From Patescibacteria group bacterium (lineage in GTDB: Bacteria; Patescibacteriota; Patescibacteriia; Patescibacteriales; UBA12465): a DNA stretch of 64,000 bases. The first letter of the stretch is position 1. Each line of letters opens with the position of its first letter. The stretch spans positions 117,857 to 181,856 of the forward strand of contig JBAZJR010000002.1 in assembly GCA_041651195.1 (NCBI GenBank), in the 5' to 3' direction. Position numbers and translations under genes: made by a program. The notes beneath the pieces were generated by a model. The model did not search any database. It was not told where the DNA came from and saw only the letters and a list, made by a program, of their open reading frames with translations. This document shows, in pieces, positions 5,335 through 59,992 of this stretch.

Positions 5335-6003
5335 CTAATTAGAGAAAGGATTAAAATCTGTCTGCTCGTCGTAAAAATCTTCCCGCTCCCGCTGCTTCAA
5401 GAAAGCAATGGCTCGATAAGTGAGCGGAGTGAACAAGATCTCTACGAGCGTCTTAAAGACATAGTTAGAAATTATCAAAGTGACCAATAAAGAGGGCGGC
5501 AAGATCCCGACAAAGGCGATCAATACGAATAATAGACTGTCGACCAGTTCGCCGCCGACCGTAGAGCCGATCGTCCTGAGCCAGAGATAGCGGCCGCGCG
5601 TCCAGACCTTGAGTTTCGCCAAGACAAAAGAATTCAAGAAGGCGCCGCAAAAATAAGCCACTAGGCTAGCCGCGACGATCCGCGGGGTCAAGCCGAGAAT
5701 CGCTTCATAAGCTGCCTGATTGGGCCAATCCGCGGCGGGCGGCAATTTCCCGACGATGATGAAAGCTAAAGACATTAGTAAGGCCGAGAAAAAACCGAGC
5801 CAGATGACCTGGCGCGAGCGATGGTAGCCGTAGACCTCGGTCAAGATGTCGCCGAAGATATAGCTGAGCGGGAAAAGCAAAGTGCCGGCGTCAAAGACGA
5901 AATAGCGCAAATCAACGATCTTGGCGGACACGATATTGGAAATCAGGAAAATAACCACGAAAAAAATGCTGATGATACTCAAATAACGATAAGATTTTTC
6001 CAT
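5335..6003 (-). CDS. yhhQ: queuosine-precursor transporter, YhhQ/VUT (DUF165) family
   Basis: 222-aa polytopic membrane ORF. Family-typical 'LLFPLSYIFGDILTEVYGY'. Confidence 0.8.
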   Translation of the reverse strand: MEKSYRYLSIISIFFVVIFLISNIVSAKIVDLRYFVFDAGTLLFPLSYIFGDILTEVYGYHRSRQVIWLGFFSALLMSLAFIIVGKLPPAADWPNQAAYEAILGLTPRIVAASLVAYFCGAFLNSFVLAKLKVWTRGRYLWLRTIGSTVGGELVDSLLFVLIAFVGILPPSLLVTLIISNYVFKTLVEILFTPLTYRAIAFLKQREREDFYDEQTDFNPFSN

Positions 6004-6031
6004 AATATTTTGGCGGCTGGCTATTTACTAT

Positions 6032-6056
6032 AAAACCAGACAGGCCGTCTGGTTTT
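6032..6056 (-). terminator. intrinsic-terminator-like hairpin downstream of tRNA-Trp
   Basis: 10-bp perfect stem aaaaccagac / gtctggtttt with a 5-nt loop. The A/T runs are built into the stem, so it could act in both directions. Confidence 0.6.
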
Positions 6057-6063
6057 ATCATCT

Positions 6064-6137
6064 TGGCACGGGATGTAGGTGCTGCCCCTACGCTACTGGT
6101 TTTGGAGACCAGTGTACTACTGTTATACTAATCCCGC
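6064..6137 (-). tRNA. tRNA-Trp(CCA) with non-canonical D- and T-loops and an encoded CCA
   Basis: Minus strand reads GCGGGAT TA GTAT AACAGTA GTAC A CTGGT CTCCAAA ACCAG TAGC GTAGG GGCAGCA CCTAC ATCCCGT G CCA. 7-bp acceptor stem (G1-U72 wobble), 5-bp anticodon stem, U33, anticodon CCA, A37, 5-bp T-stem with G53-C61, discriminator G73. Confidence 0.75.
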
Positions 6138-6165: not shown

Positions 6166-6696
6166 TTAATACGCTTCCACCCAGATTTCGAAATAGCCTT
6201 GCGGGTGCGAGCAGGACGGACAGACTTTAGGCGGCTCTGTGCCTTCATAGATATAGCCGCAATTCAAACATTTCCATTTCTTGACTTCCGGGCGCTTGAA
6301 GACTTCGCCTTTCTCCAGATTAGCTAATAATTTCTGATACCGCTCTTCATGCGCTTTCTCTACTTCCCCGACTTCTTTAAATAACCGAGCGATATCCGGA
6401 TGCCCTTCCTCTAAAGCGTCTTTCTCCATATCTGGATACATCTGTGTCGTCTCATAATGTTCGCCCTCGATGGCTGCCTTCAGATTCGTGGCGAGATCGG
6501 GGCTGATTAAGCCTAATTGCTTAGCCCAGATCTTAGCATGCTCCTTCTCATTCAAGGCTGTTTCCGTAAATAGGTTCGCGATCTGTTCATAGCCGGCTTT
6601 GCGGAAAACAGAAGCGAAATAGTCATACCGATTGCGCGCCAAAGATTCTCCGGCCAGAGCATTCTCCAAGTTTTTTTTAGTTTTTGGTCCTAACAT
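6166..6696 (-). CDS. rbr: rubrerythrin
   Basis: 176 aa. Ferritin-like diiron helices ('NEKEHAKIW', 'EGEHYE', 'EKAHEERY') plus a C-terminal rubredoxin-like 'CLNCG...CPSCSHP'. Confidence 0.9.
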   Translation of the reverse strand: MLGPKTKKNLENALAGESLARNRYDYFASVFRKAGYEQIANLFTETALNEKEHAKIWAKQLGLISPDLATNLKAAIEGEHYETTQMYPDMEKDALEEGHPDIARLFKEVGEVEKAHEERYQKLLANLEKGEVFKRPEVKKWKCLNCGYIYEGTEPPKVCPSCSHPQGYFEIWVEAY

Positions 6697-6746: not shown

Positions 6747-7817
6747 TTATTCCTGTTTCTGCTCCCCTTCTTCCGCGCAGAACTCGAGCTCATAGATATG
6801 GAAGATCGTAACGGCCAGAGCGATGATGAGCGGGCCCAAGACCACGCCCCAGAAACCAAAGAGGAGGACGCCGCCCAAGATCGAGAACAAAACGAAGATC
6901 GGGTTGATTTCCGCATCGCCCTTGACCATATAGGTCCTGATGACATTATCGATCGTCCCAGTCACGAAAGCCCCCCAGAGAAGGATGAATACCCCTTGCC
7001 AGACATCACCGGCTAAAAGATAGTAGAGGCCGGCCGGCACGAAAAAGATGGCTGAACCGATATAAGGCAGGAGTGAAAGAAGCGCGGTCAGGACGCCGGC
7101 TAAGAAAGCCGGAAAGCCGATGATGGCGAAACCGATGGCGCCGACCACGCCCTGGGCGATGGCGACGACAAAAGTAGAGATAAAAGTCGTGTAACTGACG
7201 CGCTGGAATTTCCGGAAAAGGACCAGGTCATACTTATCCGGCAGCGGCGACAGGCGCATCAAGGTTTCTAGCATCTTCTTGCCGTCGATGAAGAAAAAGA
7301 ACATCGTGACGATGATCAGGATCAGGGAGATGACAAAATTAGTGGTCTCCCGCAAAGCCAAAGTCGCGCCGGACAGCAGCCAATTGCTGGACTGTTTTAA
7401 GATTTCCAACAGGGTATTCTGGAAAGTCTCATTATAAAAATTATACTGGCCCAAATTCAGATAGCTCAAGGCGCCGCGCTGGAAGAAATCCGTCTTAAAG
7501 AGGTCGTTGACCGTATGATTGCTAAAGAAAGCGACCGTCGCGTCATAGGCGATAACGGATTTCTGGCCAGCGTAAGTTATCAGCTTGAAGGATGGCAGAA
7601 TGATGATGACGAGCAAGAGCAGGCACATCAATAAAGCCGCGGTTTTTTCCCGACCGCGCAAAAATTTAGCCAGATAAGCGAAAGGCTTATAGAAGACAGA
7701 AGCCAAGATCGCGGCGACTAAGATCTCCGTCAAGAAAGGCCGGAAAACTAAATAACAGGCTACCAGTACCAAAAATACCAGAATTAGTAAAAACGGCTTG
7801 GTTAATTTTTTAGGCAT
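6747..7817 (-). CDS. AI-2E family transporter (PerM/UPF0118)
   Basis: 356-aa polytopic membrane ORF with the family-typical layout and C-terminal region ('LLPYIGSAIFFVPAGLYYL', 'INPIFVLFSILGG'). Confidence 0.8.
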   Translation of the reverse strand: MPKKLTKPFLLILVFLVLVACYLVFRPFLTEILVAAILASVFYKPFAYLAKFLRGREKTAALLMCLLLLVIIILPSFKLITYAGQKSVIAYDATVAFFSNHTVNDLFKTDFFQRGALSYLNLGQYNFYNETFQNTLLEILKQSSNWLLSGATLALRETTNFVISLILIIVTMFFFFIDGKKMLETLMRLSPLPDKYDLVLFRKFQRVSYTTFISTFVVAIAQGVVGAIGFAIIGFPAFLAGVLTALLSLLPYIGSAIFFVPAGLYYLLAGDVWQGVFILLWGAFVTGTIDNVIRTYMVKGDAEINPIFVLFSILGGVLLFGFWGVVLGPLIIALAVTIFHIYELEFCAEEGEQKQE

Positions 7818-7860: not shown

Positions 7861-8016
7861 CTATTTAGTTTCTTTGTGGAGGGTGTTTTTCTTGCAACGA
7901 TTGCAATATTTAGACAGCTCCAATCTCTCTTTCAGGGTCTTCTTGTTCTTGTGGGAATGATGGGTCGTCGTCTTGCAAACCGTGCATTCCAGCTTGATCA
8001 TGTTGTCTTGGGACAT
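7861..8016 (-). CDS. rpmG: 50S ribosomal protein L33
   Basis: Absent from the ORF track because it is under 60 aa. Minus strand encodes [51 protein letters not shown]. The two CxxC pairs and 'KNKK...LELKKYC' pattern are typical of L33. Confidence 0.9.
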
Positions 8017-9105: not shown

Positions 9106-9123
9106 AAAGTTAGCATATTAAGG

Positions 9124-9207
9124 TGGGCCGAGTTGGATTCGAACCAACGAAGGCACAAGGCCAGCAGATTTACAGTCTGCCCCAGTTGACCGCTTTGGTA
9201 TCGACCC
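9124..9207 (-). tRNA. tRNA-Tyr(GTA), long variable arm
   Basis: Minus strand reads GGGTCGA...GCAGA CTGTAAA TCTGC + long variable arm + GTTGG TTCGAAT CCAAC TCGGCCC A. CCA is not encoded. Confidence 0.9.
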
Positions 9208-9317: not shown

Positions 9318-9716
9318 TTATTGAACGATCGTGGTGATGACAAAGCGGGTCAGAGCGTAAGACATAAAGACCACGACGAGGCCGATAGCCGACCAGATGA
9401 TGATCTCCCGGCCCTTCTTCACTTTCTCGTCGTTGCCGGAAGAAGTCATCCAGGTTAGCCCGCCATAGACGAACATAACCAGGGCGATGGAGCCGACCAG
9501 GCCCATGATCGAATTGATCACCCGGCCGATCAAAGCTTGCGGTGAACTGATGCCGAGAGGGTTAGTCAGGCTCAGGCTGGATGAGTCGGAGTCAGTATTA
9601 TCATGGGTAGTCTGCTGCCCTCCGGTATTGTCTTGGACGGTGCTCTGGGCTAAAGCGGCTGTCAAGTTAAAAATAAATACAAAGATAACTAATAAGCCAA
9701 TTAAAATTTTCCTCAT
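9318..9716 (-). CDS. small secreted/membrane protein, TrbC/VirB2-like 'T4SS pilin' family common in CPR genomes (tentative)
   Basis: 132 aa. Signal peptide ending 'ALAQS', a low-complexity S/T/D linker, then two TM helices around 'MFVYGGLTWMTSSGNDEKVKKGREIIIWSAIGLVVVF'. Confidence 0.55.
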   Translation of the reverse strand: MRKILIGLLVIFVFIFNLTAALAQSTVQDNTGGQQTTHDNTDSDSSSLSLTNPLGISSPQALIGRVINSIMGLVGSIALVMFVYGGLTWMTSSGNDEKVKKGREIIIWSAIGLVVVFMSYALTRFVITTIVQ

Positions 9717-12028: not shown

Positions 12029-12116
12029 TATTTTAACGATATAAATATCTTCTATAATTAAATAAATAATCTAATAATAAACAAAAAACCACCTCTACGG
12101 TGATTTTTCAAAACTG

Positions 12117-12189
12117 AGCCGTTGACCGGGATTGAACCGGTGACCTTCTCCTTACCATGGAGATGCTCTACCAGCTGAGCTACAACGGC
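12117..12189 (-). tRNA. tRNA-Thr(GGT)
   Basis: Minus strand reads GCCGTTG TA GCTC AGCTGGTA GAGC A TCTCC ATGGTAA GGAGA AGGTC ACCGG TTCAATC CCGGT CAACGGC T. CCA is not encoded. Confidence 0.9.
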
Positions 12190-26860: not shown

Positions 26861-27622
26861 TTATTTTATAATGACGGCCTGGCCGACTTCCACCCGCTCG
26901 TAAAGATACTCCGCCGCTCCGACGCCGAGACGGATACAGCCGTGCGACACGGCTTTCCCTAGATGATCTTCGCCTTCGCGATAGCCATTCGGCCAAACCG
27001 GCAATTCATGGATGCCGAATTCGCCGCGATTCAGGCCCAACCAATAAGGCATCCATAGTCCATAGGCTTTTGACCAGGCTTTCGCAACCTTATTGATAAT
27101 CTTAAAAGTTCCCGCCGGCGTCGGCATACTGGCCTTGCCAGTAGAAACCGGAAATTTTTTCCAGGGCTGGTCAGCGACGAAATAAGTTAATTTCTGTTTT
27201 TTTAAATCGATTTCGACGCGCCGCGGCAATCTGGCCGTCGAACCAGAGATCGGGTCATAAGCCGCGTCGATTTCCACTCCATCCAAATAACCGTCTTTAT
27301 CCGTGTCTGGATCAAAAGGATCGGTCTTAAATTTCAGCTCCCAATAATCACTAAGTCCATCCTGATCCACATCGCTGTCAGCGATCTTTATTTCCTTTGG
27401 ATTGAAAGGCGAATAGCCATGCTCTATTTCCTGATCATCCGGATAGCCATCGTTATCGGTATCAACCGTTTCAGCGGCGCTGGCCGCGGCACAAGACGCT
27501 AAAAATAACGTTAAGACCAGGCACGCGCTGACGCTATACGCTAAGCCCGCGCGGATTAAGCGCGAATCGAAACAGCGGCATAAACGCCGGATAAAAAATT
27601 TTATCATCTTAAAATAAGGCAT
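26861..27622 (-). CDS. L,D-transpeptidase (YkuD) with thrombospondin-type-3-like Ca-binding repeats
   Basis: 253 aa. Catalytic 'SHGCIRL'. Repeats 'DTDNDGYPDDQE', 'DVDQDGLSDYWE', 'DPDTDKDGYLDGVE'. An alternative start at 27607 would give an ATGA overlap with queH. Confidence 0.85.
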   Translation of the reverse strand: MPYFKMIKFFIRRLCRCFDSRLIRAGLAYSVSACLVLTLFLASCAAASAAETVDTDNDGYPDDQEIEHGYSPFNPKEIKIADSDVDQDGLSDYWELKFKTDPFDPDTDKDGYLDGVEIDAAYDPISGSTARLPRRVEIDLKKQKLTYFVADQPWKKFPVSTGKASMPTPAGTFKIINKVAKAWSKAYGLWMPYWLGLNRGEFGIHELPVWPNGYREGEDHLGKAVSHGCIRLGVGAAEYLYERVEVGQAVIIK

Positions 27623-28161
27623 GCTTGAGGCGTTAAAGAATATTCACAACCGCAAAATTTCTGACGATACAAGCCTAATTCTCTAGCCAAGGCCTGGCTT
27701 TTGCGATAAGCCTCATCGGCCTGTAAGTCTTCCGACAGGAAATCAAGATCGCTCAAGGCGGCCAATTCCTGACCGAGACGGCGGATCGCGGCCGTATCCT
27801 TATACGGACTCACGGCCAAAGTCGTGCCGAAGAGGTCGAAGCCTCGCGCCGCCGCCAGCTGCGCCGTCCGCGCCAAACGGTCGCGATAACAAAGCCGGCA
27901 ACGCTCGCTCCGCTCCGGATCAGCGGCGCGACCCGCGGTTAATTCCCGCCAAGGCTGATGATCATAGGGCTCGATAATGAGCGGCCAGCCAAATCGATCG
28001 GCCATCGATTGGACCGCTTCGAGGCGACGGTCATATTCCGCCTGAGACAGCAGGTTGGGATTATAAAAATACCAGGTCAATTCATAAAACGGCGCTAATC
28101 TTTCGCGGCTGACATAAGTGCCGCAAGGCGCGCAACAGATTTGTAAAAGCAATTTTTTCAT
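27604..28161 (-). CDS. queH: epoxyqueuosine reductase QueH (DUF208)
   Basis: 185 aa with 'LLLQICCAPC', 'CRLCY' and 'FCGCEYS' cysteine motifs. Confidence 0.85.
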   Translation of the reverse strand: MKKLLLQICCAPCGTYVSRERLAPFYELTWYFYNPNLLSQAEYDRRLEAVQSMADRFGWPLIIEPYDHQPWRELTAGRAADPERSERCRLCYRDRLARTAQLAAARGFDLFGTTLAVSPYKDTAAIRRLGQELAALSDLDFLSEDLQADEAYRKSQALARELGLYRQKFCGCEYSLTPQACLILR

Positions 28162-29280: not shown

Positions 29281-31962
29281 TTATAATTCAGCCGCCTTTT
29301 CAATCTCTATTTCCGCCCGCATATTGATGACGACGACATCGCGCCGCTTTAAATCGCCGCTCAAGATCTTATTCGCGACTTCGTTCTCGACCCTCTCTTG
29401 GAGCAGACGGCGCAAAGGGCGGGCGCCAAACTTCGGGTCATATCCGTCGCGCGCCAGAATCGCGACGCCATCCTTATCCGCCTTGAGCCCGATACCCTTT
29501 TCCGCCAGTTTTTTCTTGATCTTCTTCAACATCAAAGTAGCGATGGCGTAAGTATCCTCGACGCTCAGCGGCTTGAAGACGATGATCCCGTCGAAGCGGT
29601 TGATGAGTTCCGGCCGCATATGCTTATTCAGCTGATTATCGATCAATTCCTGCCGGATCAAATGCAGAGGGGTCTGCGCACGGATCTGCTCCTGGATATA
29701 GACGGCGCCGATATTAGAAGTCGCGATGATGATCGATTCGGAAAAACTGATGGTTCGGCCCTGGCCGTCGGTCAGCCGCCCGTCGTCCAGGAGCTGCAGG
29801 AAAAGATTCAAAATATCCGGATGCGCTTTTTCGATCTCATCCAGCAAGACCAGGGCGAAAGGCTTCTTGCGGACCGCTTCAGTCAGATAGCCGAGCGCGC
29901 CGTCCGTATCGCCGATCATCTTCTTGACGCTGTCCGGCGATTGATATTCGCTCATATCCAGGCGGATCAGATAATCTTCATCCCCGAAATAGATTTCACT
30001 GACCGATTTAGCCAGCTCGGTCTTACCGACGCCGGTCGGACCGAGGAACAAGAAGCTGGCGATCGGCCGCTTACTGTCTTTGAGTTCGGCGCGCGCGCGC
30101 CGCAGACTGGCGGCCACGGCGCTCACCGCTTCCGTTTGATCGATCAGGCGCCGATGGATTTCCGCTTCTAGATTCAGGAGCTTTTCCCTTTCCGAAACCG
30201 TAATCTTGCTGACCGGGATGCCGGTCAAATCGCTGATCGCCGCGGCGACCGCGGCCTGATCGCAGAAACATTGTTCCGGATTATTCTTAGCCTGCTTGGC
30301 CGTGATGATGGCGGCTTTTTCCAAGAGATTGATCGCTTTAAGCGGCAGAGCCTTCTCGTGCAGATAGCGGGAAGACATTAAGACGGCTTGTTCTAAAGCG
30401 CTATAAACAAAATAAATATCATACTTAGCCTCCAGAACGCCAACCTTGCTCTCTAAAACCTGGATGGCCTGGTTCAGCTCCGGCTCTTCGATGCCGATGG
30501 TCGTAAAAACATTGCCGATCGACTTATTCTCCACATAGCGGGCATAATTTTCCGTGGTCACCGCGCCAAGACAGAAAATATGCCGCCGACCGACCGCCTC
30601 CGCTAAGACCTCTGACAAATCCAGGCTTTCCTGATTGCCGGAGCTGATCCCGATAATATTCTCAATATTGTCCAGATATAGAATGATGTTGCCGGAACGG
30701 CTGGCTTCGCTAATCGCGCTCAAGAGGCGCCCCTCAGCCTGGCTGGCATCGGCACCGGCGACCAACCGGGGAATATCCAATTCAACCAAACGCTTATCTT
30801 TTAAAAATTCCGGCACATTTTCTTCCACCATCAATTGTGCCAAACCGCCGACAATAGCGCTCTTGCCGACACCGACTGGCCCGACCAATAAGACGCCATT
30901 ATGGCCGCCGCTCAGCGCTTCAAAGATGGCAGAGATCTCCTTATCCCGTCCGACACAAATATCTAAAGAACCGTATTTGGCGCTAACCGTCAGATCATGG
31001 GAAAAATGGTCCAAAGTCGGCGTGGCAATAGCCGTATAAGCGCGATTCATATTATTGCCGGGCTTAAGGATCGCTAAACGGCGATAATTATGATAACGAT
31101 CGACCAAACGGCGATTGACGCGGAACCAGACGACCGAATTCCTAATCTTATCCTGATCGATCTCCAACTCATATAGAACTTCCGCCAAGACCGGATCTTT
31201 TTCATAGCAGAATAAGACCATATTCAAGACATCGACGCTCGCCTGCTTGAGATTGAAGGCGTCGATAAAAGCGAGCGTCAGGGCTTCTTGAAGCGGCGGC
31301 GCCAGATCGACACGGCCGCGGTGCGGCGCATCTTGCGGCTTGACCAGATGCCGATCAATCATCTCGACCAGCCTCTTGGCGTCGACATTCAAACGGATGA
31401 AAAGATTCTGGATTTCTTTGCTCTTCAATAGGACCCGGAAAAGATGGATGACCCGCACTTCTGATTGATTTAATTTGCGGGCCAAGAGATAGGCGTCTTC
31501 GATCGCCCGGAAAGCAGCCGTGCTATAAGCGGCCGCCACATTATAGCGCTTCGTCCGTCGCGCCGGGCGCTTCTCGTCCGTCCGGAACAAGCGATAGTTT
31601 ATCTTCTTGGCGGACGCCCGGCCTTCACTCCGGCGATAGATCATAAAAAGATCAAGCCAGAGAGAGAGTAAGAAAATCAAGACCAAAGGATCGAACTTTT
31701 TCCAAAAGAATAAAAGGCTGAGCGGATTGGCGGCCAGAGAAGATTGGTTGGCAAATAGCCAGGCGCCGAAAGCCAGCCAGCCGGCAAAAATAAGCAGCCA
31801 GGCGAAAACCGCGGCCGCCCGGTTGATCTTTCCCCGCAGCCGTTCTAAGGCGATGATCGACCGCCGGATATCGGCTCGCCAAAATAAAAACCGTCCAGAA
31901 AACCAGGCGCCCCGTCCGCCTTCATCCTGCTCTTCGGTAAAAATTATTTTTTCTTCGATCAT
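29281..31962 (-). CDS. membrane-anchored Clp/Hsp100-family double-AAA+ ATPase
   Basis: 893 aa. Two N-terminal TM helices ('VFAWLLIFAGWLAFGAWLF', 'LVLIFLLSLWLDLFMIY') and Clp_N-like repeats. D1 Walker A is 'GPVGVGKSAIV' with Walker B 'ILYLDNIE'. D2 is '[12 protein letters not shown]' / 'LVLLDEIEKAH'. No long middle coiled coil and no IGF/LGF loop seen. Confidence 0.8.
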   Translation of the reverse strand: MIEEKIIFTEEQDEGGRGAWFSGRFLFWRADIRRSIIALERLRGKINRAAAVFAWLLIFAGWLAFGAWLFANQSSLAANPLSLLFFWKKFDPLVLIFLLSLWLDLFMIYRRSEGRASAKKINYRLFRTDEKRPARRTKRYNVAAAYSTAAFRAIEDAYLLARKLNQSEVRVIHLFRVLLKSKEIQNLFIRLNVDAKRLVEMIDRHLVKPQDAPHRGRVDLAPPLQEALTLAFIDAFNLKQASVDVLNMVLFCYEKDPVLAEVLYELEIDQDKIRNSVVWFRVNRRLVDRYHNYRRLAILKPGNNMNRAYTAIATPTLDHFSHDLTVSAKYGSLDICVGRDKEISAIFEALSGGHNGVLLVGPVGVGKSAIVGGLAQLMVEENVPEFLKDKRLVELDIPRLVAGADASQAEGRLLSAISEASRSGNIILYLDNIENIIGISSGNQESLDLSEVLAEAVGRRHIFCLGAVTTENYARYVENKSIGNVFTTIGIEEPELNQAIQVLESKVGVLEAKYDIYFVYSALEQAVLMSSRYLHEKALPLKAINLLEKAAIITAKQAKNNPEQCFCDQAAVAAAISDLTGIPVSKITVSEREKLLNLEAEIHRRLIDQTEAVSAVAASLRRARAELKDSKRPIASFLFLGPTGVGKTELAKSVSEIYFGDEDYLIRLDMSEYQSPDSVKKMIGDTDGALGYLTEAVRKKPFALVLLDEIEKAHPDILNLFLQLLDDGRLTDGQGRTISFSESIIIATSNIGAVYIQEQIRAQTPLHLIRQELIDNQLNKHMRPELINRFDGIIVFKPLSVEDTYAIATLMLKKIKKKLAEKGIGLKADKDGVAILARDGYDPKFGARPLRRLLQERVENEVANKILSGDLKRRDVVVINMRAEIEIEKAAEL

Positions 31963-32493: not shown

Positions 32494-35133
32494 ATGTTCA
32501 ATAAATTTACCGATAAATCACAGGAGGCGATCATCAATTCGCAGATCCTCGCTTCTTCCTACGGCCAAGCTAATATCGAAGCGCTTCATATCCTCCTGGC
32601 GCTCCTAGAACAGAACGAAAGCCTGATCAAGCCGATCATGGAAAAGATGAAGATCGATCCGGAAATAATGGAGGAATATACCGTCAAGGAAATCAAGAAA
32701 TTGCCGCGCGTAAAAGTCAATCGGGAGGCCGGGCCGGTCCAAGCGGTTTCCGGCACTGCGGAAACGGCGCTCATCTTAGAGCGCGCCCAGAAAGAAGCGG
32801 ATGGCATGAACGACGAATTTATTTCGACCGAACATATCCTCTTAGCGCTCATCGGCGTGCCTTCGCCGGCACAGAGCATCCTTTTGAATTTCCGGGTCGA
32901 ATACCAGGCGGTCAAGAATATCCTGAAAGAACTGCGCGGGTCAGCGACGATTAACGATCCTTTCCCGGAAAATAAATATAAGGTGCTGGAAAAATATACG
33001 ACCAACCTGACAGAGCTCGCCCGCCAGGAAAAACTGGACCCGGTAGTCGGACGCGACCAGGAGATCCGCCGCATCATGCAGGTGCTCCTGCGCCGGACCA
33101 AGAATAACCCGGTCCTGATCGGCGAGGCCGGTACCGGCAAGACGGCGATCGTGGAAGGCTTAGCCCAGCGGATCATCGCTGGCGATGTCCCAGAAAATTT
33201 AAAAAATAAAGAAATCGTGACCTTGGATCTCGGCGCGCTCGTCGCTGGCGCGAAATTCCGCGGCGAATTCGAAGATCGCCTGAAAGCGGTCTTGAAAGAA
33301 GTAAAATCACAGAACGGCCGGATCATCCTCTTCATCGATGAGCTGCATACCTTGATCGGCGCCGGCGCCTCTGAGGGCTCGATGGATGCTTCTAATATGC
33401 TCAAGCCCGCCCTCGCCCGCGGCGAGCTCCGCACCATCGGGGCGACCACGACCAAGGAATACCAGAAATATATCGAGAAAGACGCCGCCCTGGAGCGCCG
33501 TTTCCAGCCGATCATGGTGAGTGAACCGAGCGTAGACGATACGATCAGCATGCTCCGCGGCCTGAAAGAAAAATATGAAGTCCACCACGGCGTCCGGATC
33601 ACGGATAACGCCGTGATCGCCGCCGCCAGATTATCCAATCGCTATATCAGCGATCGCTATCTGCCAGATAAGGCCGTCGACTTGATCGACGAGGCGACCT
33701 CTTCGCTCCGCATGGAAATCGATTCTATGCCCGACGAACTCGACCAATTGAAACGCCAGATCAACCAATTAGAACTAAACAAGGCTGGGCTCATGACTGC
33801 TGACAAAAAATCTCCGAAACTGCGCGCTGTTAATGCCGAGCTGGCGAAATTGAAAGAAAAGGCTGACCAGCTGGAACTACATTGGAATAATGAAAAGAAT
33901 ATCATCTCCCAGATCCGCGACTCCAAGAAAGAAACAGAGGATTTAAAGATCAAGGCGGAGATCGCCCAGCGCCAGGGCGCCGATCTGACCGAAGTAGCAA
34001 AAATCAAATACGGACTGATCCCCGAATTGGATAATAAGATCAAGCGCCTCCAGGAAGAGCTGATCAAGATCCAAAAGAAAGGGCAGCGGATCCTGAAAGA
34101 AGAGGTCGACGAAGAAGATATCGCCAAGGTCGTCGCGCGCTGGACCGGCATCCCGGTCAATCGGATGCTCCAGGACGAGATCCAAAAACTGAGCGACGCG
34201 GAAAATAAATTAAATAAAGAGGTTGTCGGCCAAGACGAAGCGATCAAGGCGGTCGCTAATGCCCTGCGCCGCAGCCGCGCCGGTATCAATGAGGAGAAAA
34301 AACCGATCGGCTCCTTCCTATTCGTCGGCCCGACCGGCGTGGGCAAGACGGAGCTCGCCAAAGCTTTGGCTAATTTCATCTTTGACGACGAAAAAGCACT
34401 GGTCCGCCTGGATATGAGCGAATATATGGAAAAGCATAGCGTAGCGAAGCTCATCGGCTCGCCGCCCGGCTATATCGGGCACGATGAAGGCGGCCAACTG
34501 ACCGACAAGGTCCGCCGCCGCCCCTATAGCGTCGTCTTATTCGACGAGATCGAGAAAGCCCATCCTGATATGTTCAATATGCTGCTCCAGATCTTAGATG
34601 ACGGCCGCCTCACCGACTCCAAGGGCCGAGTCGTCAATTTCAAGAATACTATCGTCATCATGACTTCCAACCTGGGCAATGAGATCATCAAGCAATATTC
34701 CATCGGCTTCAACGACGCGAGCGACCAGGCGCAAGAGATCAGATTCCGGACCGCCGAAATGAAGGAGAAGATCGATAAGATCTTAAAGAGCCATTTCAAA
34801 CTGGAATTCCTGAATCGCATCGACGAAACCGTGCTCTTCCAGAGCCTGACGCCAGCCGCCTTAGAAAAGATCGTCGATCTGGAACTGATTAAGGTGGAAA
34901 AGAGATTGGGCAATAAGAATATCCTGATCAAGGTGAGCCCGAAGATCAAGAAGATGCTGGCGGAAAAAGGCTATGACATCACCTACGGCGCCCGCCCCTT
35001 GAAGCGGATCATCCAAACCATGATCCTAGACGAGCTGGCTCTTGAAATCATCACGGGCAAGATCAAAGAAGGTGATAAAGTCCGGATAGACCTCAGCGAG
35101 AAAGAGGCTGTGACTTTAAAAGTGAATGGTTGA
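32494..35133 (+). CDS. clpB: chaperone ClpB
   Basis: 879 aa. Walker A/B in both AAA modules ('[15 protein letters not shown]' / 'ILFIDELHT'; '[12 protein letters not shown]' / '[11 protein letters not shown]'), plus a long coiled-coil M-domain between them. Confidence 0.95.
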
Positions 35134-41086: not shown

Positions 41087-41158
41087 GGTCCCTTCGTCTA
41101 TCGGTTAGGACGCCAGGTTCTCATCCTGGTAAGAGGGGTTCGATTCCCCTAGGGACTA
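41087..41158 (+). tRNA. tRNA-Glu(CTC)
   Basis: GGTCCCT TC GTCT ATCGGTTA GGAC G CCAGG TTCTCAT CCTGG TAAG AGGGG TTCGATT CCCCT AGGGACT A. CCA is not encoded. Confidence 0.9.
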
Positions 41159-41164
41159 CGAAGC

Positions 41165-43052: not shown

Positions 43053-43125
43053 GCGCCTATAGCTCAGTTGGTAGAGCAACAGCCTTTTAAGCTGATGGTC
43101 GCTGGTTCGAATCCAGCTGGGCGCA
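43053..43125 (+). tRNA. tRNA-Lys(TTT)
   Basis: GCGCCTA TA GCTC AGTTGGTA GAGC A ACAGC CTTTTAA GCTGA TGGTC GCTGG TTCGAAT CCAGC TGGGCGC A. Confidence 0.9.
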
Positions 43126-43172
43126 CCGATAAAATTTACTAGGTCATATATCGATTTATAGAACGAATCTGG

Positions 43173-43807: not shown

Positions 43808-43880
43808 GCCGACTTAGCTCAGCTGGTAGAGCAGCTGTCTTGTAAACAGCAGGTCGTCGGTTCAAACCCGACAGTCGGCT
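43808..43880 (+). tRNA. tRNA-Thr(TGT)
   Basis: GCCGACT TA GCTC AGCTGGTA GAGC A GCTGT CTTGTAA ACAGC AGGTC GTCGG TTCAAAC CCGAC AGTCGGC T. Confidence 0.9.
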
Positions 43881-43893
43881 CCCGCACATACTT

Positions 43894-46485: not shown

Positions 46486-47469
46486 TTACCTTAATCCGAC
46501 CCGTTGGCGCAGTTTATAGGCATTGCCGTGCTCGAGCAAAGCGGAATAGGCGGCGCGAGTGGCTAGAGGAGGATCAGTTTCAATTCTCTTCAGCATCCGC
46601 CTCTTGGTGGTCGGCCGCAGGACTCGGTGATCGCCGAATTGCACCCAGCCCAGGAAATCGACGCCGCTCGCCAATGTTTTTAGATATACTTTCTTGGGAT
46701 GAAGGGATAACTTCAAGCGCCGCACCAGAAATTCCTCCAGCTTAGACTGTAGATCCAGAAGATAGCTGCGGTCGGGGCTCAGGAGCACAAAATCATCGGC
46801 ATAGCGGATATAATATTTCACTTTCAGGGAGCACTTCACGAACTGATCGAATTCGTCCATATAGACGTTGACCAAGAGTTGCGAAGTTAGGTTACCCAAG
46901 GGCAAACCGATGCCAGGACGGCCTAAAGTTTCAAAGCTGTCGATGACCTGGCCGAAAAGCCAGAGGAGTTCGGGGCCGGCGATATATTCGTTCAAAATAT
47001 CTTTTAGGATCTGATGGTCTATGCTGGCGAAGAATTTGCGGATATCGCCATTTAAAACCCAAACAGTGCGGTGACCGTTCCGCGAAACCTTATCGGCGAA
47101 CTCGGCGAAGCGACGGACGGCGCGGTGCGCCCCCTTATCTAAACGACAGGAATAGGAGTCGTGGATGAATTGCCGGTCGAAATAACGATAGGTTTCTTGA
47201 TACAAGAGATGATGGAGCAGGCGATCGCGGACCGCGGCCTTATGGATGCTACGCGGCTTGGGGTCGGAAATGTTGAAAGCCTGGTAAGGGCCGTGCTGAT
47301 AGGTTTTACTCTTTAGCTCCCGGTCGAGCCGGAACAGATTATCCGACAGTTTGGTTTGAAAGACAGCTACGTCCGTCCGCTGTCTTTTTCCAGATAAAAA
47401 ATCTTCCCAGGCCAAGAGCAGGTTGCCGGACGTGATTATCTCCTCGTATTTTTTACTAAATTTTTTCAT
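46486..47469 (-). CDS. DGR-type reverse transcriptase
   Basis: 327 aa. RT motifs include 'SIHKAAVRDRLLHHLL', 'LPLGNLTSQLLVNVYM' (the SQ signature I associate with DGR RTs) and catalytic 'IRYADDFVLL'. Confidence 0.9.
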   Translation of the reverse strand: MKKFSKKYEEIITSGNLLLAWEDFLSGKRQRTDVAVFQTKLSDNLFRLDRELKSKTYQHGPYQAFNISDPKPRSIHKAAVRDRLLHHLLYQETYRYFDRQFIHDSYSCRLDKGAHRAVRRFAEFADKVSRNGHRTVWVLNGDIRKFFASIDHQILKDILNEYIAGPELLWLFGQVIDSFETLGRPGIGLPLGNLTSQLLVNVYMDEFDQFVKCSLKVKYYIRYADDFVLLSPDRSYLLDLQSKLEEFLVRRLKLSLHPKKVYLKTLASGVDFLGWVQFGDHRVLRPTTKRRMLKRIETDPPLATRAAYSALLEHGNAYKLRQRVGLR

Positions 47470-47478
47470 TGTAAACTT

Positions 47479-47868
47479 ATGAGCGCCACTCTCCGCCCGC
47501 CCGTCGTCCTCATCAAGGCCAAGGAAGCTTACGCCCTCTGGTTTAAAATCCTCTCGGATTTCCCCAAAGTATACCGCTACAACCTGGGCGGAAAAATCGA
47601 AAATCTCTTTCTGTCATTTTTGGAAAATACCGTGGCCGCCATTTACGCCGCGGGCGAAAAGAAGGCGGCGCAGCTATCACTGGCCGTAATCAGGCTGGAC
47701 AGCCTGAAATTCTTTCTGCAGCTCGCCTGGGAAAACAAATGTCTCTCCAATGACAAATATCTGGAACTGGCTGCTCACCTGGAAGAAATAGGACGGATGA
47801 TCGGGGGCTGGATACGGGGCCTAAAGATGAAAACTCCCCCAAATAATGGAGGAGAAATAATGAAGTAG
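47479..47868 (+). CDS. avd: Avd-like accessory variability determinant (four-helix-bundle / 23S rRNA-IVS protein family)
   Basis: 129 aa, helical throughout. 'FPKVYRYNLGGKIE', 'LDSLKFFLQLAWENKCLS' and 'IGRMIGGWIRGL' fit the family pattern. It lies on the opposite strand to the RT, TR and target. Confidence 0.8.
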   Translation: MSATLRPPVVLIKAKEAYALWFKILSDFPKVYRYNLGGKIENLFLSFLENTVAAIYAAGEKKAAQLSLAVIRLDSLKFFLQLAWENKCLSNDKYLELAAHLEEIGRMIGGWIRGLKMKTPPNNGGEIMK

Positions 47869-47973
47869 CGGAACGAACAAGCGATGACGATTCTCGCCAT
47901 TCCAGACGTTGTCGTTCAGGAAGCCGTTCACGTTGGCCTTCAAGCCGTCCGAATTCACGTTCACGTTGGCCAC
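47868..47973 (-). repeat. DGR template repeat (TR)
   Basis: 106 bp matching 48313..48418 except at 11 positions, all T on the + strand (A on the - strand). The minus-strand reading is AAC/AAT-rich. Confidence 0.9.
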
Positions 47974-48199
47974 GAAATGTATAAGCTTCCTTCCCTTACA
48001 CCGCCGGCCTGAAAGAAGGCGCGGCTGAATCTTACTCGGAGCCTAGAAGCTCACCAGCAGCTTATACCAACTTGATTATTTTTTTATTGCTAACGCCGCC
48101 GCCCTCGCGCCAACCTTGACCGGCGCGACTCCGGACGACATTCTCAAACGGCCTTGGCCCGCCAGCCGTAACCGACGGACAATACAAAACCATATTTTA

Positions 48200-48228
48200 A
48201 TTATATAGAAAAATCCCTCGGAATCCAA
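48200..48228 (-). promoter_or_regulatory. candidate promoter for the TR transcript
   Basis: Minus strand reads TTGGAT (48228..48223), a 17-nt spacer, then TATAAT (48205..48200). It overlaps the 3' arm of the terminator hairpin. Confidence 0.4.
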
Positions 48229-48270
48229 GAGCACTTTTGCTGAAAACAAAGTGCAAATGATCCGAGGGAT
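48208..48270 (-). terminator. nested hairpin / intrinsic terminator after the DGR target gene
   Basis: Outer stem atccctcgga / tccgagggat (48213..48222 / 48261..48270). Inner stem gcacttt / aaagtgc (48231..48237 / 48248..48254). TTTTT follows on the minus strand. It begins 22 nt after the target stop codon. Confidence 0.65.
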
Positions 48271-48292
48271 ACAAAGGGCAAACCCAAAATTA

Positions 48293-49006
48293 CTAAGCTG
48301 CCAAAAACAGTTGCGGAACGAACAAGCGATGACGATGCTCGCCATACCAGACGCCGTCGTTCAGGAAGCCGTGCACGCAGGCCACCAAGCCGTCCGAATT
48401 CACGTACACGCGGGCCACAAACAGGTTATCGTCGGTTGCCGGCAAATTTTCGTCCTTTTTGACCAGGAAAAAGTTCGCGTAACCTTCCAACCGGAGATTC
48501 TTCTGGTTGGAGCAGATGGATATCATCTGATCCTGAGTCAACCATAATCTTTCGAGGTCGACGCCGAACGAGGTGAACATCTGCTTGAAGGTGGCGCCTG
48601 AAGTTAGCTCATATGCCGAGCTCTTTGCCCGCTTGGTCGCTGTTCCCGGTCGATCCAAACCGTATTTTTTGAAATTCGTATCAATATAACCGCGAAAGGT
48701 CCCGCTGGCTTCGGAAATGATTCTCTTTCCATCCGCAGCTGGTATGGAAATAGCAGACAATCCCGGAATCAGCTGCAGGCAGCTGGTGTTTTGGACTAAT
48801 TGCGGTTTGGCAACGATGATCTTGTTGTCGCTTTCCCATCGCTGGTTATTAAACTTGTTATTTACGATGTCCTGTAGCGCGACCGCTACGGACTCGGGAT
48901 CAAGCGGACTCCCGTACTTTTGGTCCAATTGGCGAAAAATGTCCCGCACTTTACGATGAATAGTGCGGTATTGATCGCCGGTGACAGCAAATTTTTGCTT
49001 GGCCAT
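48293..49006 (-). CDS. DGR variable (target) protein
   Basis: 237-aa ORF whose last ~40 codons are the VR (...VARVYVNSDGLVACVHGFLNDGVWYGEHRHRLFVPQLFLAA*). AGGAGA Shine-Dalgarno upstream. No signal peptide or TM helix evident. Confidence 0.85.
   Translation of the reverse strand: MAKQKFAVTGDQYRTIHRKVRDIFRQLDQKYGSPLDPESVAVALQDIVNNKFNNQRWESDNKIIVAKPQLVQNTSCLQLIPGLSAISIPAADGKRIISEASGTFRGYIDTNFKKYGLDRPGTATKRAKSSAYELTSGATFKQMFTSFGVDLERLWLTQDQMISICSNQKNLRLEGYANFFLVKKDENLPATDDNLFVARVYVNSDGLVACVHGFLNDGVWYGEHRHRLFVPQLFLAA
48313..48418 (-). repeat. DGR variable repeat (VR)
   Basis: Counterpart of TR, at the 3' end of the target ORF. It ends 20 nt before the stop codon. Confidence 0.9.
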
Positions 49007-56893: not shown

Positions 56894-58183
56894 ATGTCTA
56901 ACATATTCATCTACGACGAATTCAATCCGGAAGATACCGCGATGATGCAGGCCTTATATTCCCGTAGCCCCAAAAGCGTGACAGAACACGTCGAAAAGGT
57001 GAAAAAAAGCGGCTCCGGTAAATTCATGGAGACTTTTTATGTCGGCTACGGACATGCAAGCATCGCCGACTGCGGCAGCACGACGATATTCATAGAAGAT
57101 ATCAGCATTCTAGGCGACAAGGCGATCCAAGACTGGCCGCTTTATAGCGGACAAGAAACTAGCACGCGCTATATCGATATGGGCCAACGAGCCATCATCG
57201 ATCCGCTCAGGACGCCGGAATCTAAAAATATCCTGGATAGCTGGATGAAGTTCTATATCGCTAACCAGGAAAAGATCCAGGCTTATCTTAAGACCAAATA
57301 CCCCCGGCAAGCCGATGAAGACGAAAATGTCTATAATAAGGCGATCAAGGCGCGCGGCTTTGATACGCTGCGCGGTTTTTTGCCGGCGGGGATAACGACC
57401 CAATTAAGCTGGCATACTAATCTGCGCCAAGCTTGGGATCATGTCGCCCTATTGCGCCACCACCCGCTCGCGGAGGTCCGCCAGGCAGCGGAGCTGATCT
57501 TGGAAAAATTGAAAGAAAAATATCCGCACAGCTTCACCTTTGTCCCTAACGCCGCCCAAGAGGAATATCGCGAACGAATCGTCAATGAATATAGCTATTT
57601 TACCACGAATAAATCGGAAAATTTCTCTATGGCCACGACCATCAAAAACGAAGAATTAAAAAAATATCAAAAAATCATCGATGAGCGGCCGCTCAAAACC
57701 GGGCTGCCGATCTTCTTAGGCGATTTAGGCACCATTACTTTTAATTTCCGACTAGATTTTGGATCTTTCCGCGACATTCAGCGCCATCGGAACGGAATCT
57801 GCCGCATGCCCCTCCTAACGACCGGCTTAGGGTTCAACGCTTGGTATCTTGAGCAATTGCCGGAAGAGATGCGCGCCGAAGCCTTGGAACTGATCGCCGC
57901 TCAAAAACAAGCGATTGATCGCCTCTCCGCGACGCCGGAAATCAAACAGTATTACATTGCGATCGGATTCGATGTCGCCTGCCAATTTACTTTCGCTTTG
58001 CCTGCCGCCGTCTACGTGACCGAACTACGCTCTAACCGGACTGTCCATCCCTCGTTGCGCTCTATCGCCCATAGGATGCACGGCGCTTTGCAAATGAACT
58101 TCCCTAATTTAAAATTATATACCGATCTCGACCTCGACGACTGGGACGTCAGGCGCGGATTAGCGGATATCATTAAAAAATAA
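56894..58183 (+). CDS. thyX: long-form flavin-dependent thymidylate synthase ThyX-like
   Basis: 429 aa. The N-half has 'GYGHASIADCG' and 'LYSGQETSTRY' (S..S.RY part of the ThyX signature). The C-half has 'FRDIQRHRNG' (RHR) and 'ELRSNRTVHPSLR'. Confidence 0.75.
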   Translation: MSNIFIYDEFNPEDTAMMQALYSRSPKSVTEHVEKVKKSGSGKFMETFYVGYGHASIADCGSTTIFIEDISILGDKAIQDWPLYSGQETSTRYIDMGQRAIIDPLRTPESKNILDSWMKFYIANQEKIQAYLKTKYPRQADEDENVYNKAIKARGFDTLRGFLPAGITTQLSWHTNLRQAWDHVALLRHHPLAEVRQAAELILEKLKEKYPHSFTFVPNAAQEEYRERIVNEYSYFTTNKSENFSMATTIKNEELKKYQKIIDERPLKTGLPIFLGDLGTITFNFRLDFGSFRDIQRHRNGICRMPLLTTGLGFNAWYLEQLPEEMRAEALELIAAQKQAIDRLSATPEIKQYYIAIGFDVACQFTFALPAAVYVTELRSNRTVHPSLRSIAHRMHGALQMNFPNLKLYTDLDLDDWDVRRGLADIIKK

Positions 58184-58753: not shown

Positions 58754-59992
58754 ATGAACTTGACGCCGGGAAAATTCATCGTCATCGACGGCACAGATGG
58801 GAGCGGCAAGACCACTCAGCTGAAACTTCTGAAAAGCCGCCTGGAAGAGGCTGGTTTAGTCGTGGCTATGGCTGATTTCCCACAATATAATACGAAATCG
58901 GCCGGCCTGGTGGAAGAGTATTTATCCGGCAAATACGGCAAAGCGGAAGAAATTGACGCTTATAAGGCGTCGATCTTCTACGCTGTCGACCGTTATGACG
59001 CCAGCTTCCAGATTAGGCGTTGGCTAGCCGAAGGCAAAATCGTCCTCTCTAACCGCTATACCAGCGCCAATATGGGGCACCAGGGCGCTAAGATCGCCAA
59101 TCCGCTGGAACGAAAAGTATTTTTCAATTGGCTTTATGATTTAGAATATAAGATCTTCGAGATTCCCCGTCCGGATCTGTCGATCATCCTTCATGTGGAG
59201 GCGGATCTCGCCCAGAGGCTGGCGCAAGAGCGCGGCCGCACCGATTGGAACGGCAAAACTACGGATATCCATGAAGAAAACCTCGACCATCTACAGAAAG
59301 CGGAGCAGATTTATCTGGAAATCGCGGCCAGCTTTACGGATTTCAAGCTGATCAACTGCACTAAGAACGGCCGTATCTTGGATCGCGAAGAAGTCAGCCT
59401 CCTGATCTGGCCAGCGGTCAACCGTATCTTGGACGGCCAAACCAATAATCAAGATTTCCAATCGATCGGCAATATTATCGGCGGTAACCGGCAAATCGTG
59501 AATAATCGGGAAGCTGTCTTTGAACGGCCGCCAGTAGCCGAAAAGCCATCAGCCGCCCCGGCGGTGCCGGGCATCCTCAAAGTAGAGAGGCTTAACGCCC
59601 AAGCGAAACTCCCGCAGAAAGCGCATCCGGGCGATGCGGCCTATGACTTATACGCCAACGATTACTACTCGATCGCTCCTTACGCCCAGGCCTTAGTCTC
59701 GACCGGCCTGAAGCTGGCTATTCCGGACGGACAAGTCGGCCTGATCTGGGATAAAAGCGGACTGGCAGCCACTGGCATCACAATGCTCGGCGGCGTAATC
59801 GACTCTAATTACCGCGGCGAGATCAAGATCGTCGTCAAAAACCTCAGCGAAGAAATCTTTAATATCACGGCCGGACAAAAAATCGCCCAAATCCTGATTC
59901 AGACAGTCAGCGATTTAGAAGTACGGGAAGAAAAAATCGAAGATGAAACAGCCCGAGCCAGCAAAGGTTTCGGCAGTTCTGGTAAATTCTAA
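58754..59992 (+). CDS. tmk: thymidylate kinase - dUTPase fusion protein
   Basis: 412 aa. The N-half has 'IVIDGTDGSGKTTQ' and 'AVDRYDAS' (Tmk). The C-half has 'AAYDLYA', 'GVIDSNYRGEIKIV' and 'RASKGFGSSG' (dUTPase motifs). Confidence 0.85.
   Translation: MNLTPGKFIVIDGTDGSGKTTQLKLLKSRLEEAGLVVAMADFPQYNTKSAGLVEEYLSGKYGKAEEIDAYKASIFYAVDRYDASFQIRRWLAEGKIVLSNRYTSANMGHQGAKIANPLERKVFFNWLYDLEYKIFEIPRPDLSIILHVEADLAQRLAQERGRTDWNGKTTDIHEENLDHLQKAEQIYLEIAASFTDFKLINCTKNGRILDREEVSLLIWPAVNRILDGQTNNQDFQSIGNIIGGNRQIVNNREAVFERPPVAEKPSAAPAVPGILKVERLNAQAKLPQKAHPGDAAYDLYANDYYSIAPYAQALVSTGLKLAIPDGQVGLIWDKSGLAATGITMLGGVIDSNYRGEIKIVVKNLSEEIFNITAGQKIAQILIQTVSDLEVREEKIEDETARASKGFGSSGKF

Follow-up and report, generated by a model that had tools for sequence, protein, structure and literature searches.

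The window analyzed here is a stretch of 64,000 nucleotides (nt) from a Patescibacteria group bacterium (assembly GCA_041651195.1, contig JBAZJR010000002.1), the minus strand of which harbors a gene for a tryptophan tRNA with the anticodon CCA, tRNA-Trp(CCA), whose elbow, built from its D- and T-loops, departs from the consensus. On this strand, tRNA-Thr(GGU) and, further along, tRNA-Tyr precede fpg, rpmG, an AI-2E family transporter gene, a rubrerythrin gene and the tRNA-Trp gene, which is followed by a hairpin and yhhQ (coordinates in Table 1). Read from G1, the tRNA-Trp gene consists of the segments GCGGGAU, UA, GUAU, AACAGUA, GUAC, A, CUGGU, CUCCAAA, ACCAG, UAGC, GUAGG, GGCAGCA, CCUAC, AUCCCGU, G and CCA, forming a cloverleaf of 74 nt with a 7-bp acceptor stem (in which G1-U72 is a wobble pair), a 4-bp D stem, 5-bp anticodon and T stems, a 7-nt D-loop and a 4-nt variable loop. 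The minimum free energy (MFE) structure obtained with ViennaRNA is identical to this cloverleaf (-23.8 kcal/mol; z = -2.3), and the Rfam tRNA model RF00005 matches positions 6064 to 6137 from end to end (49.1 bits, with the gathering score at 29 and an E-value of 1.7e-7 over the whole window). ARAGORN, when applied to the window, returned the five other tRNAs and did not call this gene. A weak Rfam match to AgrB at positions 6028 to 6131 (23.7 bits against a gathering score of 40) was dismissed; it corresponds to the downstream hairpin and part of the tRNA.

Bacterial tryptophanyl-tRNA synthetase (TrpRS) recognizes a CCA anticodon in a 7-nt loop with U33 and A37, together with the discriminator base G73. 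The gene combines this anticodon and discriminator set with a cloverleaf that scores above the RF00005 threshold and with orthology to accepted tRNA-Trp genes (see below); furthermore, none of the 27 sequences aligned in this study departs from the CUCCAAA loop, G73 or the three anticodon-stem pairs nearest to the loop. The elbow consensus (G18, G19, U54, U55, C56, R57, A58 and G53-C61) is only partly present, the window variant having replaced G18 by A, U54 by G, U55 by G and A58 by G, while G19, C56, R57 and the G53-C61 pair are in place. Few nucleotides in biology are as conserved as G18, T54, pseudouridine 55 (Psi55) and A58, and the elbow that they build serves as a recognition site for the ribosome, RNase P, RNase Z, the CCA-adding enzyme and T-boxes. 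Departure from the elbow consensus does not, in itself, exclude tRNA function.

A first-pass annotation of this locus had described the cloverleaf, the CCA anticodon, G73, the length of 74 nt and the 4-nt variable loop, as well as a T-loop GGCAGCA and a D-loop AACAGUA with a single G, all of which were borne out by the sequence and the MFE fold; its identification of a tRNA-Trp(CCA) with truly non-canonical D- and T-loops is thus supported. Its claim that the usual contacts between the two loops cannot form holds for G18/U55 and U54/A58, both of which are replaced, but not for the outer elbow pair G19-C56, which can still form because G19 (the lone G of the D-loop, as placed by alignment) and C56 are retained.

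Canonical tRNA-Trp(CCA) genes, called by ARAGORN, were identified in four other Patescibacteria (L003, L005, L007 and L009), whose YhhQ proteins are 71 to 75% identical to that of the window. In all four, the gene is located directly downstream of rpmG and lies upstream of yhhQ by 1 to 2.4 kb (L003, L007 and L009) or approximately 4.6 kb (L005). The window variant shares the rpmG-downstream slot, length and architecture of these genes and aligns with them without gaps, the 7-nt D-loop and 4-nt variable loop being present in both; G5-U11, the anticodon arm core GGUCUCCAAAACC, G73-C74, G19, C56 and G53-C61 are identical. The differences comprise the D-loop (AGUGGUA in canonical genes, AACAGUA in the variant), the T-loop (UUCGAUU versus GGCAGCA in the window), pair 1-72 (G-C versus G-U), pairs 2-71, 4-69 and 12-23, which are flipped, and the T-stem, which differs with compensation; pair 51-63 is A-U in 22 of the 23 distinct variant sequences described below and G-C in the canonical orthologues. 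The Rfam score falls accordingly from 66.7 to 71.5 bits in canonical genes to the 49.1 bits of the window variant. The trailer GATGATA downstream of the variant also occurs in L005 and L007. In four variant loci (L013, L019, L039 and L045), rpmG lies directly upstream of the tRNA, while in the others the AI-2E gene, with or without the rubrerythrin gene, is inserted between them. Judged by gene order and alignment, the variant is an in-place descendant of a normal tRNA-Trp and not an import, because canonical and variant genes occupy a common slot after rpmG, align without gaps and, in four variant loci, abut rpmG in the same manner. Throughout the clade, the locus has kept its synteny with rpmG, fpg and the tRNA-Thr/Tyr cluster. 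In the window, as in seven related variant loci, a pilin gene of the type IV secretion system (T4SS) type precedes fpg-rpmG.

The distribution of the variant was assessed by two pattern scans. The first, run on 185,579 species-representative genomes, placed no constraint on the D-arm and asked for a non-T at position 54; nine genomes matched, and the D-loop was AACAGUA in all nine. The second, of metagenomes, left the T-arm free and required a non-G at position 18; 29 loci matched, each with a variant T-loop. Both scans demanded exact GATTAGT and GGTCTCCAAAACC, such that intermediates and more diverged members would escape. The 38 further loci thereby obtained (L011 to L048) represent, together with the window, 31 distinct loci and 23 distinct sequences, and the metagenome-assembled genomes (MAGs) that carry them are labeled Falkowbacteria, Buchananbacteria or "Patescibacteria group." Two contigs bear other labels, namely JBLNBA010000004.1 ("Bacillota bacterium" MAG163; L015) and CAYIZF010000001.1 ("uncultured Gammaproteobacteria bacterium"; L016); both carry the variant tRNA-Trp and the synteny (AI-2E, rubrerythrin, tRNA) typical of the candidate phyla radiation (CPR), and are probably mislabeled or misbinned Patescibacteria sequence.

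The stems were evaluated in an alignment of the 23 variants and 4 canonical sequences, in which every stem cell (567/567; 100%) forms a standard pair and 9 of the 21 stem pairs have changed on both sides. Four of the five measures had values that none of 500 shuffles attained, the exception being further pair types (46 of 500), and pairing falls to between 34 and 48% in slid registers. The tRNAs have a median identity of 90%, compared with 32 to 40% for the 40-nt flanks and 48 to 100% (median 62%) for the linked AI-2E proteins, a pattern which points to strong purifying selection on a structured RNA. Covariation in relatives, proposed previously as a check on the stems, shows them to be maintained throughout, and the label "degenerate" is misplaced, as few parts of the gene are better conserved than the odd loops, which are kept in 23 distinct sequences with paired changes. 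The possibility that the locus is a decaying pseudogene with accumulated loop mutations would agree with the failure of ARAGORN to see the gene and with an Rfam score some 20 bits below that of the canonical orthologues. Against this, 23 distinct sequences, with linked-protein identities down to 48%, have the same changes fixed, no stem change lacks compensation, and the gene is conserved while its flanks are not. Because of this purifying selection, decay is effectively excluded and is the least probable of the explanations weighed here.

Within the family, G19, C56, purine 57, A60 and G53-C61 never vary, and A15, A18 and G55 are likewise fixed. The T-loop is GGCGGCA in 11 sequences, CGCGACA in 6, GGCAGCA in 4 and CGCGAUA in 2, while the D-loop is AACAGUA in 21 and AAUAGUA in 2. 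Positions 54/58 are solely G/G (15 sequences) or C/A (8 sequences), and positions 16/59 are solely C/C (21) or U/U (2). A rough neighbor-joining tree of the linked AI-2E protein has the G/G and C/A types intermixed and does not join the two U/U sequences as sisters, which, for a tree of a single protein, is suggestive of repeated paired switches at 54/58 and at 16/59. Across 430 kb (the window and related loci), the variant T-arm type is confined to tRNA-Trp and neighboring tRNAs are canonical, from which it follows that the elbow change is specific to tRNA-Trp.

In known structures, purine 57 sits between the G18-U55 and G19-C56 pairs, the latter of which forms the flat outer face of the elbow, the stacking surface for the L1 stalk, RNase P and T-boxes (PMC7912444; PMC4810234). 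A purine-purine 54/58 pair is found in eukaryotic initiator tRNA and is, therefore, compatible with function (PMC7912444). Read most simply, the sequences suggest preservation of the T-loop fold and the outer face, with a rebuilding of the two inner layers. An extended T-stem, with a G55-C59/U59 pair and a 3-nt loop, was also considered; it fits the C59/U59 variation but not the strict pairing at 54/58 or 16/59, and is regarded as less likely.

The 3' end of the gene had attracted attention as the only one among the six window tRNAs with a full encoded CCA, which is confirmed by the continuations of the other five (ACCT, TCAG, ACGA, ACCG and TCCC); these five have ordinary GG D-loops and GGUUCRA T-loops. 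The bringing of the gene by a phage or other mobile element, with the CCA as its signature, might be read from this singularity and from the fact that CCA follows G73 in 7 of the 31 distinct variant loci, compared with approximately 2 expected from the A-rich trailers (binomial P = 0.004). Since the observed number exceeds the expectation from trailer composition, there may be weak selection for an encoded CCA. Nevertheless, the state of the CCA differs between loci with identical tRNAs, being present in L043 and absent from L020, L021, L026 and L032, present in L030 and absent from L047, and present in L044 and absent from L036; it is encoded in none of the four canonical orthologues and is thus not conserved as would be expected of a CCA-encoding tRNA gene. 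C74 is encoded by all six window tRNAs and in all 31 variant loci, and C74-C75 without A76 by the window tRNAs Tyr, Lys and Thr(UGU), such that partial encoding of CCA seems to be the rule in this genome. A foreign source is further opposed by the clade-wide synteny with rpmG, fpg and the tRNA-Thr/Tyr cluster, by the gap-free alignment with canonical orthologues and the trailer common to L005 and L007, by the unremarkable GC content around the locus, and by a search of 2.9 million viral contigs in which the variant D-arm and anticodon pattern had no match. Mobile acquisition is, therefore, very improbable and, like decay, effectively excluded. The encoded CCA is a sporadic local feature with no sign of a separate origin or of an obligatory separate maturation route. 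Of the two suggestions made in the first-pass annotation, a different origin is contradicted by the rpmG-adjacent slot, the base-for-base alignment with canonical genes and the lack of a copy in the viral contigs, while a different maturation route does not characterize the family, in which CCA is encoded in a minority of loci and varies between identical tRNAs.

It is proposed, with a probability of approximately 0.75, that the variant is the working tRNA-Trp of a Patescibacteria/CPR clade, descended in place beside rpmG, with a remodeled elbow in which the changes compensate one another. The genetic code of the window is standard, with TGA as a stop codon, 151 UGG codons in 44 open reading frames (ORFs) (0.98%) and tryptophan in 40 of the 44, and a Trp-decoding tRNA is consequently required. 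The tRNA gene would probably be transcribed with the upstream rubrerythrin gene, and perhaps with the entire rpmG-AI-2E-rubrerythrin unit; cotranscription with rubrerythrin is likely because a mere 28 nt separate its stop codon from G1, and the rubrerythrin gene is immediately upstream of the variant in 23 loci. Transcription would probably end at the hairpin located just past the gene, a putative intrinsic terminator of the unit (none of 200 shuffles folds as well). The transcript would then be processed and charged by TrpRS via the unchanged identity set of C34, C35, A36 and G73, and A37 is probably isopentenylated, given that the tRNA has the A36-A37-A38 motif and the window a gene for MiaA. 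The mature tRNA would decode the approximately 1% UGG codons of the genome. In its elbow, the outer G19-C56 face, the intercalating purine 57 and the G53-C61 closing pair are retained, while G18/Psi55 would be rebuilt as A18/G55, T54/A58, paired in trans Watson-Crick/Hoogsteen fashion, as G54/G58 (in the window) or C54/A58, and G15/C48 as A15/C48. Most likely, a symbiont with a small genome suffered a damaging change in this single-copy tRNA gene, compensating changes followed, and the new elbow would since have been kept by strong purifying selection.

The A36-A37-A38 stretch of this tRNA-Trp is the expected substrate motif of MiaA. The genes for MiaA, QueH and YhhQ represent tRNA-modification or salvage functions in the window, where tRNA-related genes are otherwise limited to Fmt, GatB and a TRAM-domain protein; TrpRS, CCA-adding enzyme, TruB, TrmA, RNase P protein and L1/L5 were sought among the window genes, none of which encodes them.

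Several points weigh against the proposed role. We infer expression, charging, ribosomal use and the status of sole tRNA-Trp from sequence, and the same applies to the inner-layer geometry of A18/G55, G54/G58 and C54/A58. Part of the apparent invariance of the family is due to ascertainment, because the scans demanded the two exact motifs, and the covariation counts ignore phylogeny. The search for a second copy covers the 64-kb window and approximately 370 kb of related loci, and a canonical gene could sit elsewhere in the genome. Finally, the only well-studied bacterial tRNAs with G55 are the staphylococcal non-proteogenic tRNA-Gly, which act outside translation (PMC7826273).

These points bear most directly on the serious alternative, namely that the gene is a specialized non-translational or regulatory paralogue, the altered elbow of which bars it from the ribosome or redirects it to another partner, with a canonical tRNA-Trp elsewhere performing decoding. 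G55 in place of U55 is common to the staphylococcal tRNA-Gly (PMC7826273), tRNA-Other likewise combines a Trp anticodon with the loss of conserved features (PMC3399842), the strong conservation of the family implies some function, and the extent of the second-copy search leaves room for a canonical gene elsewhere. However, no second tRNA-Trp was found in the window by ARAGORN or by Rfam at the gathering threshold, nor between positions 4800 and 9400, which include the rpmG-proximal slot, by Rfam at E <= 5, and ARAGORN detected no canonical tRNA-Trp beside the variant in the 38 related loci. The variant occupies the exact slot of the canonical tRNA-Trp of other Patescibacteria, with no locus having both, and is flanked by conserved core genes and not by a genomic island. 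Moreover, U33, the CCA anticodon, A37-A38, G73, G53-C61 and G19-C56 are all retained and invariant, and no partner enzyme is linked to the gene. The downstream genes were considered as functional partners and rejected, as they change from one locus to the next, encoding, among others, an ECF-sigma-like protein paired with a membrane protein, a large S8-like surface protein or YhhQ, and no consistent partner emerged. In small CPR genomes, tRNA genes are usually single copy. A paralogue of this kind is, on balance, considered unlikely. Were a working tRNA-Trp accepted, the new inner elbow might still be adaptive and not merely compensated, serving as a discriminator that is read by a Trp-specific partner or that renders the tRNA unreadable to an elbow-reading enzyme or toxin. 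This tentative extension appears doubtful; if it were true, the whole CPR clade would decode UGG with a tRNA that lacks G18, T54, Psi55 and A58, and matching changes would be expected in the partner or in the processing and translation machinery.

The window as a whole is an unremarkable piece of CPR chromosome and encodes glycolysis enzymes, GyrB, DnaB, ClpB, GatB, MiaA, QueH, a T4SS-type pilin and a diversity-generating retroelement (DGR). Its YhhQ protein has the same sequence as NCBI MFA5184196.1, encoded by a MAG labeled "Patescibacteria group bacterium," and the closest homologues of YhhQ are found in Paceibacterota/Minisyncoccia MAGs. In the DGR, a 113-nt template repeat adjoins the reverse transcriptase (RT) gene, and an 88%-identical copy is located in the 3' end of an ORF without a Pfam match. 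Within the repeat core, the two copies differ exclusively at positions where the RT-proximal one has an adenine; adenine-specific mismatches are the hallmark of DGR mutagenesis. Two divergent ClpB/ClpA-like double-AAA+ genes are also present, the minus-strand one lacking a Clp_N match and having a far weaker AAA_lid_9 match, along with a small nucleotide-metabolism cluster.

Table 1. Features of the window and canonical tRNA-Trp examples (positions refer to the window unless a locus is named).
Feature	Position	Strand	Details
Variant tRNA-Trp(CCA) gene	6064..6137	-	G1 = 6137; discriminator G73 = 6067; encoded CCA = 6066-6064; from Rfam, MFE fold, orthology, family
T-loop GGCAGCA	6080..6086	-	G54 G55 C56 A57 G58 C59 A60; replaces UUCGAUU
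Anticodon CCA	6103..6105	-	Loop CUCCAAA at 6101-6107; U33 and A36-A37-A38 present; read from sequence
D-loop AACAGUA	6118..6124	-	A14 A15 C16 A18 G19 U20 A21; G18 -> A, G19 kept; by alignment with canonical AGUGGUA
12-bp hairpin, then U-rich stretch (probable terminator)	6030..6058	-	Begins 6 nt past CCA; -15.8 kcal/mol, z = -3.9
YhhQ/Vut_1 queuosine-precursor transporter gene	5335..6003	-	PF02592; downstream neighbor
Rubrerythrin gene	6166..6696	-	PF02915/PF21349; stop codon 28 nt upstream of G1
AI-2E family transporter gene	6747..7817	-	PF01594; present in 28 loci
rpmG (ribosomal protein L33)	7861..8016	-	Called gene with PF00471 in L001; ancestral upstream neighbor of tRNA-Trp
Other window tRNAs	9122-9207, 12116-12189, 41087-41159, 43053-43127, 43808-43882		
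Canonical tRNA-Trp examples	L003:3613-3683; L009:4631-4701		
T4SS-type pilin gene	9318-9716	-	PF18895
QueH gene	27604-28161	-	
MiaA gene	62173-63168	-	
ClpB/ClpA-like double-AAA+ gene	29281-31962	-	
ClpB/ClpA-like double-AAA+ gene	32494-35133	+	
Diversity-generating retroelement	46486-49006		
DGR reverse transcriptase	46486-47469	-	RVT_1
DGR repeats	47864-47976, 48309-48421		
DGR target ORF	48293-49006	-	
Nucleotide-metabolism cluster	58754-59992, 56894-58183	+	58754-59992, thymidylate kinase-dUTPase fusion ORF; 56894-58183, adjacent 429-aa ThyX (Thy1) ORF; cluster also includes a dCMP deaminase

A bacterial elongator tRNA in which four near-universal nucleotides have been replaced, and which has been kept over deep divergence with paired changes at 54/58 and 16/59, would constitute a natural experiment that separates the essential parts of the elbow (G19-C56, R57 and G53-C61, which are kept) from those that can be rebuilt. 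There is also a practical consequence for annotation, as ARAGORN misses the variant of the window as well as those of 26 of the 38 related loci, succeeding mostly on the CGCGAYA type of T-loop; pipelines based upon it would report these CPR genomes as being without tRNA-Trp and thereby understate their completeness.

A literature search returned no description of the variant, of anomalies in Patescibacteria tRNA-Trp or of an A18/G55 swap, and the closest known systems each resemble it in part. The staphylococcal tRNA-Gly NP1-3 are bacterial, conserved within their lineage and carry G55 (UGC/UGU for UUC), and hence no pseudouridine 55 (PMC7826273). They are, however, extra paralogues that exist beside a normal tRNA-Gly, lack a G at D-loop position 19, retain U54, are poor binders of EF-Tu and the ribosome and supply the Fem transferases (PMC7826273), whereas the CPR variant replaces the orthologue in its own slot, keeps G19, is also changed at positions 54 and 58 and has no linked transferase; neither a paralogue nor a dedicated aminoacyl-transferase was seen within the window or related loci. 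A tRNA of the non-proteogenic type would be expected to have T-stem pairs 49-65, 50-64 and 51-63 that make EF-Tu binding weaker than its amino acid demands; of these, 51-63 is the pair that is A-U in 22 of the 23 variants and G-C in the canonical orthologues. The tRNA-Other of Bacillus cereus is a tRNA-like gene with a Trp (CCA) anticodon that is without conserved tRNA features; it occurs in some Bacilli only, next to a pathogenicity island and in addition to a normal tRNA-Trp, and is poorly aminoacylated and absent from polysomes (PMC3399842). The CPR variant, in contrast, lies among conserved core genes, with fpg, rpmG, AI-2E and rubrerythrin as its flanks across the clade and no island beside it, and is subject to strong structural selection throughout a broad clade.

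Eukaryotic initiator tRNA-Met (A54/A58) is translationally active with a purine-purine 54/58 pair and offers a precedent for G54/G58, although it is an initiator and not an elongator and keeps G18, G19 and a pyrimidine at position 55 (PMC7912444). Animal mitochondrial tRNAs are similar in that single-copy genes of reduced genomes have lost conserved elbow nucleotides with partial compensation; in these, the elbow interaction is usually gone, as are the docking motifs of their partner RNAs, whereas the CPR variant keeps the G19-C56 face and a 7-nt T-loop, and only one of the six window tRNAs is affected. The gene is, accordingly, of a known kind, a tRNA-Trp, and what is new is a clade-wide variant of its elbow and not a new system.

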